From IMG/VR virus record IMGVR_UViG_3300020048_000018, positions 32,001 to 96,000 of that record: a stretch of DNA of 64,000 nt. One strand, 5' to 3'. Each line of letters begins with the position of its first letter. The first letter of the stretch is position 1. Position numbers and translations under genes: made by a program. Positions 1 through 58,670 of the stretch are shown one piece after another. Source of the DNA: a virus. The notes beneath the pieces are model-generated. The model saw only the letters and a program-made list of their open reading frames with translations. It was not told the DNA's origin and did no database searches.

Positions 1-47
1 AATAGAAAATGAATTAAAAGGAACTAAATAATTATTAGGAGCTACAT

Positions 48-287
48 ATGTCAAACAATATTATAGAACATTTTGAGGATACTACAGGAATTGAGTATTC
101 GCTATTTAAGTCTGAAGTTTTTGAGATGCTTACGGAACTGTTTCAGACAGGGATGAAGGATGAAGAGTATTATGAAGAATGTTCTCAGATGGTTCAAGAC
201 TTTATTGGAAACCAAATTTCAGTTGATTATGACCAATTGAATGAACTTTCGTCCTTTATGGTAGTGCAATTCTTCTCAGAAGATTAA
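48..287 (+). CDS. Hypothetical acidic protein
   Basis: 79-aa ORF with SD (AGGAG) upstream. Confidence 0.7.
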   Translation: MSNNIIEHFEDTTGIEYSLFKSEVFEMLTELFQTGMKDEEYYEECSQMVQDFIGNQISVDYDQLNELSSFMVVQFFSED

Positions 288-307
288 TTTTCTTCTAAAT
301 TCCCTAA

Positions 308-348
308 AAAGTTTTGAACTTTTCTGAAATATCCTATATATTATATAG
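308..348 (+). promoter_or_regulatory. Repeated sigma70-like promoter, copy 1
   Basis: AAAGTT-TTG-AACTTT ... CCTATATATTATATAG; -35 TTGAAC, 17-nt spacer, -10 TATATT. Confidence 0.85.
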
Positions 349-355
349 GAAAGGG

Positions 356-505
356 TAGAAGTTTGGCACAGGTTGCCAGACGTTTTTTGGAGAAAAATAT
401 GTGGAGTAAAATCCACTACTAGGGTTCAAATCCCTGAACAAGTGGTCGGCACTTGGGTTAATTACCCCTAAAAAACTTGTTGGGTTCGAGTCCCAAAGCT
501 TCTAA
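356..505 (+). ncRNA. tRNA-Ser(GGA)-like RNA with ~60-nt insertion and two T-arms
   Basis: Acceptor-like helix TAGAAGTT(356-363)/AGCTTCTA(497-504); D-like arm TGGCA/TGCCA; anticodon arm GTTTT-TTGGAGA-AAAAT; variable arm GTGGA/TCCAC; T-arms AGGG-TTCAAAT-CCCT (421-435) and TTGGG-TTCGAGT-CCCAA (480-496); no CCA. Confidence 0.65.
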
Positions 506-533
506 AGAACTGATAAGATTGGAGGTTAGTAGT

Positions 534-1859
534 ATGGAAAAGAAAGCTATGGAAATTTGCAAAACACTCCAAAACTCAGGACATCAAGCACTGTTTGTAG
601 GTGGTTTTGTTCGGGATAAATTACTTGGAAAAAAAGCTCACGACATTGATATTTGTACAGATGCTCTCCCCACTCAAATAGAAAACCTTTTTTGGAAAAC
701 TGTTGGAGTAGGAAAAGAGTTTGGTACAATTGTAGTCCCTATGAAGGAGTTTTCTTTCGAGGTTACTACATTCAGAGCAGACTCAAAATCCTCAGATGGT
801 CGAAGACCTGACAGAGTAGACTTCTCAAAATCTTTTTCCGAGGATTCTTCTCGAAGGGACTTAACCATCAATGCAATTGGGTTTGACCCTATCAAGGATA
901 CCTTGTTTGACCTCCATGGTGGAGAGTCAGATATAAAAAACAAAGTTATCCGTTTTGTGGGTAATCCCTCAGACCGGCTTGCAGAAGATCGGCTCAGAGC
1001 TTTAAGAGCTATTCGTTTTTCTGCCCAACTTGGTTTTACCATTGAAGAAAACTCTTGGAAAGCCATTTGCGAAATCGGACACGATGATTCTGCCTTGAAA
1101 AATCTTTCATGGGAGAGGATTCGTGATGAGATGATGAAGATTCTCGTTTCAGACTTTCCTGCAAAAGGAATATTCCTTCTTAAGGAATCTGGACACCTTC
1201 ACCATATTCTCCCTGAGTTCGACAACATGTGGTGTTGTCACCAGAGCAAGAGATGGCACAGTGAGGGAACTGCCGCAATCCATACACTTTCTGTTTTGTC
1301 AAAATGTCTTACGAATACCTTTGTTGACAGAATGGCTTGTTTGCTCCATGACATTGGTAAACCCAACTGCTTAGAACTTAAAGATACAGAAGATGGATGG
1401 TGGAAAATCACAAACAAATGCCATGACATCGTGGGTCATTCCATTGCGGAAGTCATTTGTTCAAGATTGAAAATTCCTTCGGCTGAATCCGAAGCAATCT
1501 GTGATGCAGTAAGGTTTCACATGGATGCCCATCACTTGACCGAGATTAAAAAGGTTTGGAAGGTAAGACGATTCATCGGGAAAAAACATTTTTCCACGAT
1601 CATGAATCTCGCCCTCGCAGACGAGCTTGGTTCGATGTCAAAGGAACCCTATGAGTCTTTGACTGTTTTTGTGGATGCACAAAGGGCTTTGTTTCCTGTT
1701 ATGCTTCCGAAGCCTTTTATTACTGGGGATATGCTTATTGCTTCTGGCAAAAAGCCAAGCCCCGAGTTCAAGGCTATTTTGGAAGATGCCTTTAATAAAC
1801 AACTCAGTGGTTCTTCGGAAGAAGAATTAGTAAGAAGATTTTGTAAGAGGAGTAACTAA
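534..1859 (+). CDS. cca: CCA-adding tRNA nucleotidyltransferase with HD domain
   Basis: VGGFVRD, DIDICT (DxD), EVTTFR, RRDLTINA, EDRLR, ERIRDE, LLHDIGK. ATG 534 behind GGAGG preferred over the track's TTG 477. Confidence 0.92.
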   Translation: MEKKAMEICKTLQNSGHQALFVGGFVRDKLLGKKAHDIDICTDALPTQIENLFWKTVGVGKEFGTIVVPMKEFSFEVTTFRADSKSSDGRRPDRVDFSKSFSEDSSRRDLTINAIGFDPIKDTLFDLHGGESDIKNKVIRFVGNPSDRLAEDRLRALRAIRFSAQLGFTIEENSWKAICEIGHDDSALKNLSWERIRDEMMKILVSDFPAKGIFLLKESGHLHHILPEFDNMWCCHQSKRWHSEGTAAIHTLSVLSKCLTNTFVDRMACLLHDIGKPNCLELKDTEDGWWKITNKCHDIVGHSIAEVICSRLKIPSAESEAICDAVRFHMDAHHLTEIKKVWKVRRFIGKKHFSTIMNLALADELGSMSKEPYESLTVFVDAQRALFPVMLPKPFITGDMLIASGKKPSPEFKAILEDAFNKQLSGSSEEELVRRFCKRSN

Positions 1860-2032
1860 TGCACAAACACAATTTTATTGTTATGAATGAGTTTTCTACC
1901 GACAGTCAAGCCGAACAACTTTGTTCAATGGGTCTAAGACCTAATACATGGACTTCGTTTTCAAAGAAGTATATTACCGATTTCAAGTGTACTATCTGTA
2001 ATAAGATGATACGCAAAATAGTAAAGAGTTAA
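1859..2032 (+). CDS. Small hypothetical protein (57 aa, not in ORF track)
   Basis: ATG overlaps cca stop (TAATG); open to TAA 2030-2032. Confidence 0.55.
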   Translation: MHKHNFIVMNEFSTDSQAEQLCSMGLRPNTWTSFSKKYITDFKCTICNKMIRKIVKS

Positions 2033-4813: not shown

Positions 4814-5695
4814 ATGAAAGGATTAAATAAAATTGTTAAGGGTATTACACAGACTTTTCTGTCAAGATTTGTTTCAAAAAAAGAATTGGAAAACAAAAAA
4901 TTGGTAGAAGTTTCTGCTGGTGATTACTTTAAGATTCTAAAGGATAAAAAGCAGAAGATAACAGATGGATCACTTACTACAATCTATGATAACTGTCTTG
5001 TTCTCCTAGATAAATATGACCGAACAGGTCAAATAGATGCTATGAAAAAACTTATGTTCCATCTTGAGACAATTGAAAAAGAACGTGAGGTTTTAAATGC
5101 AGGATTAGACACTTTTGTGTATCTAAATGATGTGAAACAGTATGTTGAAAAAGTTCAAGAAAGAGTTGTTAAAATAATCGAACTGGAAAAGTATGAACGT
5201 GAAATTCCAGATGACGTAATAGCAACTTATGAAAAGGTTAAACACCTTTTCTCAAAGTTCTTTGTAGTGTTCACTGATTTCACAAAAGAACATACTAAAA
5301 AAATTGAGAAAGAACGTGATCCAATATTGTTTGGTATGTTCCAAGATAAAGCCTCAGGCTCAAACTGTGAAAGACTTTATTTTATAGGTGATTGGGAAGA
5401 TGAGTTTTGTGACCTTACACTAGATCGTCTTATATCCGAAATGAAACCCCAACATGAAAAAGAACAAATCGAGTTTAATATTCGAGAACCAAAATCTTTA
5501 GAAGAACTGAGACAAAAGTTGGTGGACCTTGAAAATGAAAATAAGACTTCAAGAATAAATAATAACAATAATAGTTATTATATTATGAACACAAATTCAA
5601 CCTCTGGAACATTATCAACACCTATAGTATCTGTAATTCAAACAGAACCGGAAAAGAAAAAATCTACTTCTAAGAAATCAGAAGTAAAGAAATAA
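4814..5695 (+). CDS. Hypothetical protein
   Basis: 293-aa ORF with SD AAGGAG. Confidence 0.75.
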   Translation: MKGLNKIVKGITQTFLSRFVSKKELENKKLVEVSAGDYFKILKDKKQKITDGSLTTIYDNCLVLLDKYDRTGQIDAMKKLMFHLETIEKEREVLNAGLDTFVYLNDVKQYVEKVQERVVKIIELEKYEREIPDDVIATYEKVKHLFSKFFVVFTDFTKEHTKKIEKERDPILFGMFQDKASGSNCERLYFIGDWEDEFCDLTLDRLISEMKPQHEKEQIEFNIREPKSLEELRQKLVDLENENKTSRINNNNNSYYIMNTNSTSGTLSTPIVSVIQTEPEKKKSTSKKSEVKK

Positions 5696-28391: not shown

Positions 28392-28785
28392 ACTTATGAC
28401 TTGTACATTTGAGTACTTTGATGGATCACCTGACAAGAAAGGGATTGGAATTTGTGATATTGAGCATGTTGAACTTCTTAATTCCTTATGGATTTATCTT
28501 CCTCCACCAAACAAACAAGGTGTAAGGACTTTAGTTTCAAGGTCTCATGGGTCACTTAGTGTTAAATCTATAGTTTTGTCCTTTAATGGTGAAAACGTTT
28601 GGAAGCAACTTAGTAATGGAAAAATAGTATCTAAAGGGATATTTCTAAAAAATGGAAACCCTGTTGATATTCGTGTAGAGAATCTTGAAATAAACAATAA
28701 GTTTGACTAGGAATCATGCAATAAAATCCTGAGATTTACAATCGAAAGATTTTAAGAATAAGTCTGCTGTTCCTCTATTTATAGC

Positions 28786-28854
28786 TACGGGAACATTCTT
28801 GAGGGCGGCAGTCTGCAAAACTGTTATTCGTGGGTTCAAATCCCACTTCCGTCT
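28786..28854 (+). pseudogene. Degenerate tRNA-Cys(GCA)-like sequence
   Basis: Intact anticodon arm GCAGT-CTGCAAA-ACTGT, T-arm GTGGG-TTCAAAT-CCCAC, 3' strand TTCCGTC-T; 5' strand TACGGGA with 1:72 mismatch; no D-stem. Confidence 0.65.
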
Positions 28855-28870
28855 TTAGAAAAATCGGTAA

Positions 28871-33515: not shown

Positions 33516-34328
33516 ATGAAAGATGCACTTGGGGATAGAATGAAATCAAACTATGAGTCTTGTACTCGAACTTTTCTTCCTAGAAGGAATTATACCCTTA
33601 TTAGGGTCGATGGTCGAGCCTTTCATACACTGACCAGAACAATGGAAAAACCTTTTGACCAAGGATTTATTTGCGCCATGAACGCCACGGCAGAATATCT
33701 TTGTCAGAATATTATGGGTGCTCAGTTTGCATTTACTCAGTCTGATGAAATCTCAGTTCTTGTTACAGACTTTGCAAGAATAGGAACTGAGGCTTGGTAT
33801 GGAAACAACTTGCAGAAAATGTGTAGTGTAAGTGCAGGACTGGCTACTGAGGCTTTTAACAAATCCCGTATTCTAAATTTTATAAAATCTTTCAACTGGA
33901 ATAACTCCCTTTATAACGAATATAGTAAGTCGGAAGAACTTTTAAACTCTCTTGAACATTATATTTCTTGGGGAGTATTTGATTCAAGAGTTTTTCAGAT
34001 TCCACAGCGAACCGAAGTTATCAATTATTTCAGATGGAGACAACAGGACACCGTAAGGAATAGTATTTCATCTGTTGCACACAGCCTTTATTCTCAGAAA
34101 GAACTTCAAGGTAAAAACAGTAGTCAACTTCAGGAGCTTATTTTTCAGAAGGGTACTAACTGGAATGAACTTGATGCAGGATTGAAACGTGGAAGGGTTA
34201 CAGTTAAAACTAGTGATGGAAGGGGATTCCTTACTCACGGTGCTCCAGACTTTATAAAAGAAGATGGGATTTCATTCATGTCGGAGAAAGTTTTAGTGAA
34301 TGAAATTACCTTCGATGACAAGATTTGA
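33516..34328 (+). CDS. thg1: tRNA(His) guanylyltransferase / Thg1-like 3'-5' polymerase
   Basis: LGDRMKSNYE, IRVDGRAFH, QSDEIS, FDSRVF, WRQQDTVRNS. Confidence 0.93.
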   Translation: MKDALGDRMKSNYESCTRTFLPRRNYTLIRVDGRAFHTLTRTMEKPFDQGFICAMNATAEYLCQNIMGAQFAFTQSDEISVLVTDFARIGTEAWYGNNLQKMCSVSAGLATEAFNKSRILNFIKSFNWNNSLYNEYSKSEELLNSLEHYISWGVFDSRVFQIPQRTEVINYFRWRQQDTVRNSISSVAHSLYSQKELQGKNSSQLQELIFQKGTNWNELDAGLKRGRVTVKTSDGRGFLTHGAPDFIKEDGISFMSEKVLVNEITFDDKI

Positions 34329-40143: not shown

Positions 40144-41346
40144 ATGGCAAGATCAATGGCTGTGGTAAACACAATAGCAAATGTGGAGAGTATTCCAGAA
40201 AAAGACAGAATCGTTCTTTATGGATTTTCGGAAAATGATTGGAAAATTATCGATGGAAAGGATACCTATAAAGTAGGTGACTTGGTAGTGAGAATTGAGG
40301 TTGATTCGCTTTTACCGGTTAGGGAAGAATTTGAGTTCCTAAGAAGTAAATGCTATACATCTAAGTTTGATCGGTTCAGAATTAAAGCTTTAAAACTGGG
40401 TGGCGTAGTATCGCAGGGACTACTTCTTAACTTGAGTATACTTCCGAAAGGAAAATATAAATCAGGGGACGATGTTACTGAGTTACTGGATATCCTTAAG
40501 ATGGAGGATGCAGAAGATGCTTCTCCAAAAGCCAATGGAACATCAAAACTCCAAACGCCTTTCATTAAGTTTTTAATGGATCACAAGTTGACTAGGAAAT
40601 TAGGAAAACTTTTAATTAAGTTTAAGCTGAGAAATCATATCAGTGGCAATTTCCCTTCGAGTACTATTTCAAAAACCGATGAAACCATTCTACAGAATTA
40701 CAAGGGTCTTTTAACCAAACATGCTAAGGATGGTTCGTATATCACCCTGAAGTGTGAGGGACAGAGTAGCACCTTTCTGTACAAAATGAAAAAGAAAAAG
40801 CCTTTTGCTTTTTTTGCATGTTCAAGAAACATTGCGTATCCAAAAGATAACGATAATAATTTCTGGAAAATGGCTAAGAAGTATAAGCTGGACGAAAAAC
40901 TTAGAAAGTATTTTAAGGATACGGGAAAAGTATTAGCAATCCAGTGTGAGGTAATCGGACCGGGTGTGCAGGAAAATATCTATAAACTTAAAGAACTTGA
41001 GATAAGGATGTTTACTGCGAAAGATATCACAAACGATATTCTTTTAACTTATTCCGAACTTATTGACTTACGAGATAACTATGATATTCCGATGGTTCCT
41101 GTTTTAACTACAGGAATTCTTGAAGATATTCTTCCTGATCTCGAAACTGCTTTAAGACTTTCATTTATCAAAAAGAATGATTTAAGTCATCTTGACGAAA
41201 GATTCAGAGAATCCCTTAAAAAGGAAACTTGGATACCTGAGGATGTACTTAATGAAGGAATGGTTATCAGGGGGCTTAACAATGAATTCTCATTCAAGGT
41301 AAGAAATCCGCAATATGTCTTTGGTGGAATTACAGCTAAATACTAA
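40144..41346 (+). CDS. RNA ligase, DRB0094/Rnl5-like family
   Basis: N-terminal IANVESIPEKDRI...YKVGDLVVRIEVDSLLP; KTDET; motif I KCEGQS; QCEVIGPGVQ; EGMV; SFKV. Confidence 0.88.
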   Translation: MARSMAVVNTIANVESIPEKDRIVLYGFSENDWKIIDGKDTYKVGDLVVRIEVDSLLPVREEFEFLRSKCYTSKFDRFRIKALKLGGVVSQGLLLNLSILPKGKYKSGDDVTELLDILKMEDAEDASPKANGTSKLQTPFIKFLMDHKLTRKLGKLLIKFKLRNHISGNFPSSTISKTDETILQNYKGLLTKHAKDGSYITLKCEGQSSTFLYKMKKKKPFAFFACSRNIAYPKDNDNNFWKMAKKYKLDEKLRKYFKDTGKVLAIQCEVIGPGVQENIYKLKELEIRMFTAKDITNDILLTYSELIDLRDNYDIPMVPVLTTGILEDILPDLETALRLSFIKKNDLSHLDERFRESLKKETWIPEDVLNEGMVIRGLNNEFSFKVRNPQYVFGGITAKY

Positions 41347-47374: not shown

Positions 47375-47446
47375 GTCCCGTTCGCCAAATGGTTAAGGCG
47401 GTGTTCTGCAAAAGCACTATCGTGAGTTCAATTCTCACACGGGACT
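47375..47446 (+). tRNA. trnC: tRNA-Cys(GCA), CCA not encoded
   Basis: GTCCCGT/ACGGGAC acceptor, GCC/GGC D-stem with TGGTTAA loop, GTGTT-CTGCAAA-AGCAC, GTGAG-TTCAATT-CTCAC, U73. Confidence 0.95.
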
Positions 47447-57398: not shown

Positions 57399-58670
57399 AT
57401 GAAAACATACACAAATCTAACTCATGAAAACAATGCTCTGGTGAAATTTATTAACTCCAATTCAGACTGGCTTAAAATCCTGTCTGATGAAAGGGGTGTT
57501 TATGCTTTAAAAATTAAACAGTCAACTTGGAAAGGGGAAGAAAATCTTTGGATGTTTTCCTACAACCAAATTAAATCAAACTTCCGTTACCAAGAATGTT
57601 GTGTAGCCCGAGGTATCATTCTTGAAATTATCGATAACAAGGTAACTCAGATTGTTCGCCATGCATTTGATAAGTTTTTTAATTCTCAGGAAGGTTTGTC
57701 TGCAAAGATAGATTTCACTTCTCCCGATACTGTATCCTCAATGAAAATGGATGGCTCAATCATAGCCCTATATAATTATCAGGGTAGATGGAATTGGTCT
57801 ACCAATGGTATGTTCCATGCAGAAGATGCAACACTTTCTGATGTCCCTGCTTTTGCATTGGACGGAGCAGAAGACTCACAGACTTTCAACGACCTTATCC
57901 AGTATTGTGTAAAAAAACAAGGAATTGAGGAATCTTGGTTTCTTGATTGCTTTACCTATGTATTTGAACTTACCTCACCAAGAAATAGGATTGTAACTCC
58001 TTACCAAGATACAAAACTTACTCTTATCGGTATAAGAAATAATCTTACGGATGACGAAGTGGATGTGTTTACTTCTCCTCTTGCAACTTTAATACCTACC
58101 CCTGAAATTTTTAAGTTTGCTTCTCTTGAAGAAGCTCTTGAAAGTGCAGACAAACTTCCTGACCTACTTGAGGGATATGTTACACGAGGTAAGATGTTGG
58201 AAAATGGATCTTATGAAAGAAGTAAATCTAAATCTGCATCCTATATTAAAACTCACCATATCCGTGGAGAGAACAACTTCTCTAACAAGCAGTTGTTTGA
58301 AGTTGCTCAGGCTAATGAGACTGGGGAAGTAGAAGCATATTTCCCTGAGATTAAAGAAAAGATTGCGAAAGTATTGTCTTCTTTCAATACCCTGAAAGAA
58401 AGAGTTCTTGACGAAGTTAATATTGGTATGGTAAAATGGACTAGTCTCTGTAATGAAGACCCGCTTTACAAGTACTCTGATGTAAACGTAAAAAAGAAAT
58501 ACGAAACTTGGGTAAATAGTCCAGAGGTAGATGCAGGATACCGCTCGTTTATGTTCCTTATACATAAGGGTAATCCGGTTGCAATGTTAGACAATTATTT
58601 TAAGACAGTCAATTGGAAAGATTACAAGAATCTCCTTTTGAAAATTAACAAAGAGAATATGGAGGATTAA
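57399..58670 (+). CDS. RNA ligase, T4 Rnl1 family
   Basis: ARGIILE, AFDKFFN, motif I KMDGS, FELTSPRNRIV, EGYV, KSKSASY. Confidence 0.9.
   Translation: MKTYTNLTHENNALVKFINSNSDWLKILSDERGVYALKIKQSTWKGEENLWMFSYNQIKSNFRYQECCVARGIILEIIDNKVTQIVRHAFDKFFNSQEGLSAKIDFTSPDTVSSMKMDGSIIALYNYQGRWNWSTNGMFHAEDATLSDVPAFALDGAEDSQTFNDLIQYCVKKQGIEESWFLDCFTYVFELTSPRNRIVTPYQDTKLTLIGIRNNLTDDEVDVFTSPLATLIPTPEIFKFASLEEALESADKLPDLLEGYVTRGKMLENGSYERSKSKSASYIKTHHIRGENNFSNKQLFEVAQANETGEVEAYFPEIKEKIAKVLSSFNTLKERVLDEVNIGMVKWTSLCNEDPLYKYSDVNVKKKYETWVNSPEVDAGYRSFMFLIHKGNPVAMLDNYFKTVNWKDYKNLLLKINKENMED

Follow-up and report, generated by a model that had tools for sequence, protein, structure and literature searches.

A tRNA-like RNA with two T arms directly upstream of the CCA-adding enzyme gene of a large phage

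Introduction

What kind of RNA is encoded between a phage promoter and the gene of a CCA-adding enzyme, if it has the parts of a serine tRNA and yet carries the T arm twice? This question is raised by a locus close to the start of the window analysed here, which is a stretch of 64,000 nucleotides (nt) comprising bases 32001-96000 of the 178-kb IMG/VR virus record IMGVR_UViG_3300020048_000018 (GC 34%). The completeness of this 178-kb record is estimated at 69% by CheckV, and it therefore derives from a large or jumbo phage. The element at positions 356-505 of the window, in the leader of the CCA-adding enzyme gene cca, encodes an RNA that is structured and tRNA-like but not canonical, and its two T arms are genuine. 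In the following, its architecture and predicted fold are described, it is compared with RNAs of other phages and with known tRNA-like systems, and the explanations that can be offered for its presence are weighed.

Architecture of the element

The element has a length of 148-150 nt and its two T arms lie 60 nt apart within a single closing helix (Table 1). It thereby exceeds the limits of a canonical tRNA, which possesses one T arm and comprises about 72-93 nt. Every helix that had been listed in a preliminary description of this DNA is found in the sequence, and a script that checked each pair separately found 41 of the 41 proposed base pairs in 356-505 to be standard. The terminal helix had been given as 8-9 base pairs (bp), of which 8 stand, while the possible ninth pair, 364/496, is in competition with T arm 2. 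In a descriptor scan the acceptor branch of 12 bp, made up of 357-363(364)/(496)497-503 and T arm 2, was accepted both as a 7/5 and as an 8/4 arrangement, with a GTTCRANYC T loop on T arm 2. Together with the tRNA finder results given below, this bears out the earlier assignment of tRNA-Ser-like parts with an 8/4- or 8/5-type acceptor branch. As had also been stated, no CCA is encoded at the 3' end.

When tRNA finders were applied, as the preliminary description had proposed, the outcome was twofold. The native sequence 356-505 is called neither by ARAGORN nor by Rfam at its gathering thresholds, and RF00005 has no match at E values up to 10 in 280-560. After in-silico removal of 60 nt, either 437-496 (T arm 1 kept) or 420-479 (T arm 2 kept), ARAGORN at default settings reports a 90-nt tRNA-Ser(GGA), in which the arm V1 is interpreted as the class II variable arm. 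Because either deletion yields this call, the element is a class II serine-type tRNA framework with 60 extra bases that carry a second canonical T arm, and its parts look derived from a tRNA-Ser(GGA)-type gene. Under relaxed settings, ARAGORN pairs T arm 2 with the outer acceptor helix.

Other RNA models fit the element poorly. The mascRNA model matches weakly over 436-502 (18 bits, with a threshold of 42.5), and the tRNA-Sec model RF01852 reaches 15.1 bits (E 2.1) in a contrived alignment, compared with a gathering threshold of 47 bits. An identity as a YrlA-type Y RNA was rejected, as RF02553 gave no match at E values up to 10 and as the record contains no Ro60 gene; the Ro60/TROVE profile PF05731 had 0 matches across the 178 kb of this 69% complete record. 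No RNA in which one acceptor helix encloses two complete T arms is contained in Rfam 15 or in the literature searched, and nothing relevant on double, fused or two-T-arm tRNAs was found in that literature.

The element is more than a product of chance, as judged from the rarity of its T-arm word, the ARAGORN calls after deletion and its base composition. The strict word GGTTCRANTCC, when a stem of 4 bp or more is required, is present at three sites in the 178-kb record, both strands included (window positions 423, 483 and 28833), where base composition predicts about 0.3 per record, and two of the three stand 60 nt apart in the element. GC content is 40-50% along the whole element including the insert, as opposed to 22-25% in the flanking spacer. 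The two T arms differ by a change on both sides of the second stem pair (A-U versus U-A), and both stems are perfect. An independent Logan assembly (L146) contains the identical sequence, so the element is not an assembly artefact.

Table 1. Features of the element and its surroundings (window coordinates; P, predicted pair or helix probability)
Feature	Position	Strand	Details
Promoter copy 1	314..342	+	motif repeat; TTGAAC, 17 nt, TATATT
Terminal (acceptor-type) helix, 5' strand	356..364	+	356-363/497-504, 8 bp; outer-pair probability 0.95-0.98
D-like hairpin D1	365..377	+	GGCA / CAGGT / TGCC; stem 365-368/374-377
U-run segment	382..398	+	5' strand of helix H (382-390) or local anticodon arm
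Variable arm V1	401..416	+	GTGGA / GTAAAA / TCCAC; 401-405/412-416; P 0.97-0.99
T arm 1	420..436	+	loop TTCAAAT; 420-424/432-436; 4 Watson-Crick pairs and U.G; P 0.96-0.97
Hairpin hp3	439..455	+	CAAGTG / GTCGG / CACTTG; 439-444/450-455; P 0.67-1.00
Hairpin hp4	456..466	+	GGG / TTAAT / CCC; 456-458/464-466, P 0.93-0.95; 4-bp alternative 455-458/464-467
A-run segment, helix H 3' strand	468..476	+	also in centroid fold
T arm 2	480..496	+	TTGGG / TTCGAGT / CCCAA; 480-484/492-496; runs straight into the 3' acceptor strand
Terminal helix, 3' strand, and discriminator A (504 or 505)	497..505	+	no CCA follows
Ribosome-binding site GGAGG	521-525	+	
cca	521..1859	+	including ribosome site; ATG 534, stop 1857-1859

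Predicted fold

The U run at 383-388 has two possible partners, as it can pair either with A393-397, which generates a local anticodon stem, or with A470-475, which generates helix H. The local arm (382-386/394-398) would have a 7-nt loop at 387-393, TTGGAGA, with U33, GGA at 389-391 and G37. The anticodon loop with U33-GGA that had been described earlier is thus possible in the sequence, but its stem has a probability of about 0 as against 0.99 for helix H. The calculated energy is -46.9 kcal/mol for the fold with the 9-bp helix H (382-390/468-476) and -41.2 kcal/mol for the fold with the local stem, and ensemble calculations on the processed RNA give H a probability of 0.94-0.99 and the anticodon stem one of 0.00. 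It is probable that the GGA "anticodon loop" is not displayed. An inner helix 437-443/475-481, which had been thought to provide T arm 1 with an acceptor-like stem of its own, was rejected as a major conformer. Its strands are complementary, but its ensemble probability is likewise 0.00 and its formation costs about 11 kcal/mol relative to the favoured fold.

With helix H formed, the predicted fold is an outer tRNA shell consisting of the acceptor helix, D1, H, T arm 2 and a 3-nt variable region, and the anticodon-arm position of this shell would carry a second tRNA-like body in the form of a five-way junction of H, V1, T arm 1, hp3 and hp4. The succession of these five helices in the model is the circular order of the arms of a permuted class II tRNA. 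The hairpin hp3 may be read either as a capped acceptor-like arm or as a second D-like arm with GG in its loop; the weak mascRNA match aligns it as a D arm. T arm 2 and T arm 1 could serve as docking sites for the GG dinucleotides in the 5-nt loops of D1 and hp3, respectively.

Position between promoter and cca

A promoter-like repeat consisting of TTGAAC, 17 nt and TATATT with conserved flanks is present in 17 copies in the window. From copy 1, a transcript is expected to start at about 348-350, which agrees with the earlier statement that the element begins roughly 7 nt downstream of this start. At the 16 other copies a ribosome-binding site follows within a few bases, and only at copy 1 do about 170 bases intervene. 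The 3' end of the element is 17 nt away from the ribosome-binding site of cca, whose product is a class II CCA-adding enzyme with head (PF01743, 9.7e-36), RNA-binding (PF12627) and HD domains. On the + strand between promoter copy 1 and cca, no terminator-like site is found except a weak hairpin at 361-381 that is followed by a run of six U. Directly 3' of promoter copy 1, positions 348-355 read GGAAAGGG, which is similar to the purine runs of the ribosome sites at other promoter copies; this short segment may be a remnant of the ribosome site that cca had before the RNA was inserted.

Comparable RNAs in other phages

For a comparison of cca leaders, the 80 best cca loci of IMG/VR were inspected with a strict descriptor consisting of a T arm plus a 12-bp branch, together with strand controls. 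ARAGORN found tRNAs near cca in one of the 80 loci. In three of them (L226, L230 and L253) the descriptor revealed an uncalled RNA of tRNA-like shape immediately before cca, and in the strand controls it revealed none. These three loci (L226/L230/L253:1000-1134) represent one jumbo-phage lineage, the cca of which is 33-35% identical to that of the phage studied here. The RNA measures 135 nt and has the form of a cloverleaf. Its acceptor branch is 6/6, its D loop contains GG, two long hairpins replace the anticodon and variable arms, and its folding z-score is -4.6. Its 3' end lies 15 nt before the cca ribosome site. Thus two unrelated lineages have a non-decoding tRNA mimic at the same spot upstream of cca, which speaks in favour of the earlier reading as a functional tRNA-like RNA in front of this gene.

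A second group of RNAs resembles the element in its architecture. Other viral contigs (L129:3191-3326, L135:1773-1909 and, on the minus strand, L143 at 4906-5043) encode a conserved RNA of about 137 nt that holds two tRNA bodies in a single acceptor helix, GGGGAAA/TTTCTCC, and that is not called by ARAGORN. Its two tRNA bodies score 31.6 and 34 bits with the Rfam tRNA model, which is above threshold, and cover model positions 6-65. Compensatory changes are seen in both T arms as well as in the long helix that joins the bodies, and therefore RNAs with two T arms under one acceptor helix exist in other phages and are selected there. Like the element in its predicted fold, this RNA places one acceptor helix around two T arms and has, at the anticodon position, a helix with a second tRNA-like body. 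In contrast to it, the inner body of the element has a long variable arm and two extra hairpins, and its site is the cca leader. A sequence relationship with L129 and L135 cannot be demonstrated, as these reach 16-18 bits with the single-sequence covariance model R1, and the covariation observed there has no counterpart for the element.

Two further candidates were discarded, namely L054, in which ARAGORN finds a normal tRNA-Leu that uses the first T arm, and L203, in which the T-arm match belongs to a terminator. As a separate observation, L077 contains at 4995-5145 a complete, ARAGORN-called tRNA-Ile(GAT) that is situated in the apparent anticodon loop of an outer tRNA-shaped frame; this frame has the acceptor AACACGG/CCGTGTT, a D arm of its own and the stem TTCCC/GGGAA.

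Relation to known tRNA-like systems

The (8/4) tRNA-Ser and allo-tRNA group is known in bacteria and phages (Mukai et al. 2016/17, PMC5389517). With class II and (8/4) tRNA-Ser the element has in common the long variable arm, the 12-bp acceptor branch (8/4 or 7/5) and the small D loop, as well as the GGA triplet in a possible 7-nt loop and the tRNA-Ser call that follows removal of 60 nt. It differs from them by its two T arms and its size, by the fact that the native form is not recognised and that the anticodon stem is outcompeted, and furthermore by G37, A73 and a linker of 4 nt between the D and anticodon arms.

YrlA is cleaved by RNase P and receives a tail from the CCA-adding enzyme (PMC4201824, Chen et al. 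2014). YrlA-type Y RNAs (RF02553) resemble the element in being non-decoding and in the arrangement of a T arm followed by permuted tRNA-like arms within a closing helix, but the element has a second T arm and, at the RNA ends, a true acceptor/T minihelix. RNA C of phage T4 (species 1 RNA, rnaC), which belongs to the T4 tRNA cluster and has no known function, is likewise a stable phage RNA (about 140 nt in T4) with a T arm, an acceptor-type end and a non-decoding body. It possesses only one T arm, is located in the tRNA cluster rather than before cca, and scores 14.5 bits with model R1. The mascRNA of MALAT1 and the thrS operator are comparable to the element in that a tRNA shape lies within a longer transcript beside a sequence that could be controlled or released. 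Non-decoding tRNA mimics such as YrlA and T4 RNA C are already known. What is new here, and accessible to experiment, is that such a mimic is coupled to cca. Should these RNAs act in tRNA repair as substrates, decoys or regulators, they would provide a concrete handle on how large phages respond to host defences that target tRNAs.

Possible role and alternative explanations

The reading that we favour, although with clear reserve, is that 356-505 is a stable, non-decoding tRNA mimic with two elbows, which is co-transcribed with cca, processed, tailed with CCA and employed as a decoy or sponge in a tRNA-repair programme. What has been observed is its architecture, its placement and the existence of analogues; its processing, its tailing and its role are inferred. 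The RNA would be transcribed from the strong phage promoter, ahead of the coding part of the cca transcript. Its 5' end would probably be generated by host RNase P, and its 3' end by RNase Z or RNase E plus trimming, so that a cca mRNA with only a short leader would remain. The CCA tail would then probably be added by the enzyme whose gene lies just downstream, and the mimic could capture host factors that recognise the tRNA elbow, the acceptor end or the serine-type variable arm. It would act beside the tRNA-repair enzymes of the phage. Genes of a Thg1-like protein (33537-34004), of an Rnl2-type RNA ligase (40741-41301) and of a T4 Rnl1-type RNA ligase (57606-58196) are also present in the window, and together with cca they constitute a full tRNA end- and nick-repair set.

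A more specific version, which we consider very doubtful at present, is that the two-elbow mimic and the CCA-adding enzyme form one counter-defence module, in which the RNA, tailed with CCA by the enzyme, serves as a high-affinity decoy while the enzyme repairs the damaged tRNAs of the host. The decoy would be directed at host toxins or nucleases that act on tRNA 3' ends or on the serine-type variable arm, such as MenT/AbiE-type enzymes and tRNA-tail nucleases. The toxin MenT3 picks tRNA-Ser via its variable arm and is counteracted by extra CCA-adding enzyme, and MenT/AbiE-type nucleotidyltransferases prefer tRNA-Ser (PMC11541572). If such a module is indeed realised, the pairing of mimic and cca in the L226 lineage would be convergent.

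Several results weigh against the two-elbow mimic. The closest cca proteins are 48-55% identical and are encoded on contigs that have the rIIB neighbourhood and the same promoter type in common with this phage, but in the five closest relatives (L119-L123) the ribosome site and ATG come immediately after the promoter, with no leader RNA in between. This makes the RNA a lineage-specific addition, and conservation in related phages, which had been proposed as a check, was not found. The element stands as a single sequence, to which the second assembly L146 adds no variation. In viral, metagenome or genome collections no homologue was found with which it could show covariation. The search for cca homologues covered 5.8 billion sequences; patterns for the two T loops detected no homologue in the viral contigs of IMG/VR, the metagenome contigs of JGI or the genomes of GTDB. 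BLAST of window positions 1-2000 against a phage database and a peptide-pattern search of IMG/VR for close cca relatives were also negative. In about 1.7 Mb of fetched loci, the best scores of model R1 (25-29 bits) were obtained with ordinary tRNA-Ser genes or tRNA pairs, and the Clostridioides phage pCD1602_4 has cca without a leader RNA. Compared with 200 shuffles, the fold of the element reaches a z-score of -2.56, which is modest, and 4 of the shuffles are equally good. The choice of fold is based on nearest-neighbour energies, which are often wrong for real tRNAs. Finally, hp4 as the hairpin at the inner D position lacks GG, and the linkers deviate from tRNA norms, with 4 nt between D1 and H and 2 nt after T arm 1.

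The element could alternatively be a working tRNA-Ser(GGA) that decodes, which we think is quite unlikely. In such a tRNA, T arm 2 and the outer helix would form the minihelix, the anticodon arm would be the local one and 399-479 would be an expanded variable region, or else the 60-nt block would be cut out and the ends rejoined by the phage RNA ligases. That a 90-nt tRNA-Ser(GGA) is recognised after either deletion fits this explanation, as do the loop TTGGAGA with its U33 and purine 37 and the share of UCU and UCC, which together make up 43% of the serine codons of the phage. Genes of 8/4-type tRNA-Ser are known in phages (PMC5389517), and insertions of about 100 nt into the variable loop of E. 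coli tRNAs are tolerated in translation (PMC5397188). The ligases of Rnl1 and Rnl2 type would suit the excision variant, but RtcB was not found in the record. To our knowledge, no mechanism exists in bacteria or phages by which such an insert could be excised. A decoding function is also difficult to reconcile with the ensemble probability of about 0 for the anticodon stem and with several features of the sequence: G37 after A36 is atypical for tRNAs that read UCN codons, the D loop comprises only 5 nt, the D and anticodon stems lie 4 nt apart, and the discriminator position holds A instead of G. Moreover, the one canonical tRNA of the phage, a tRNA-Cys at 47375 (58 bits; ARAGORN, and Rfam at gathering thresholds), is fully regular, so the phage is able to keep normal tRNAs.

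Two further explanations, both of which we judge to be unlikely, dispense with a free RNA that acts in trans or with a function altogether. One is that the element is mainly a cis-acting leader of cca, either as a tRNA-shaped processing signal that sets the 5' end of the mRNA or as an operator to which the CCA-adding enzyme binds, shutting down its own translation while intact tRNA 3' ends abound. That operators can mimic tRNAs is well established, as exemplified by E. coli thrS, and the distances of 17 nt here and of 15 nt in the unrelated L226 lineage between acceptor 3' end and ribosome site agree with a role in cis. In the full leader, there is little difference in energy between the acceptor helix and a hairpin by which the ribosome site is sequestered (-50.6 versus -52.5 kcal/mol). 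The terminator-like hairpin of 8 bp at 361-381, which is followed by GTTTTTT (361-388 in total), lies about 35 nt past the expected transcript start and has bases in common with the 5' acceptor strand and with D1; it could be an attenuator of cca transcription, or it may be incidental. With -9.5 kcal/mol it is weak in comparison with the -16 kcal/mol of a real terminator of this phage. The nearest cca relatives do without any leader, and two complete T arms plus six other helices exceed what a processing signal needs. The idea that the 3' acceptor strand masks the ribosome site was dismissed, as 23.5% of shuffles pair equally well, which is chance level. The other explanation is a rearranged or broken tRNA-Ser gene devoid of function, such as a scar that was left when tRNA genes recombined at the conserved T loop, or by a small mobile insert, and that is passively retained in the cca leader. 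The element being an orphan that is absent at the same site in relatives and that tRNA finders reject in its native form is consistent with such an origin, and so is the partial tRNA-like piece at 28780-28856, whose T arm has a 13-nt core in common with T arm 1. However, no decay is apparent, with eight out of eight helices perfect, a canonical loop in either T arm and a GC content that remains high across the insert, and the difference between the T arms is a compensated pair. Specific routes to such a scar were rejected or judged unlikely as well. A recent tandem duplication of the 60-nt block is not indicated because the halves are unrelated outside the T arms (about 33% identical in our own alignment). 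An insert of the repeated mobile type would have further copies in the genome, and its 43-nt core has none. Had two different tRNA genes simply fused, a perfect outer helix of 8 bp would not have been left, which makes this route unlikely.

Further observations

Two large viral records from one metagenome, G001 (L151, 143 kb) and G002 (L152, 109 kb), contain many copies of the promoter motif of this phage; in these records, with completeness of 47% and 37%, neither the RNA nor cca was found. The partial piece at 28780-28856 is tRNA-Cys(GCA)-like and is located just upstream of another promoter copy. Its anticodon arm and T arm are intact, and its acceptor and 5' half are poor. Outside the window, at G000:C1:133578-133662, ARAGORN reports an 85-nt tRNA-Pro(TGG) that has several mismatches in the acceptor and anticodon stems and is probably not a normal tRNA.

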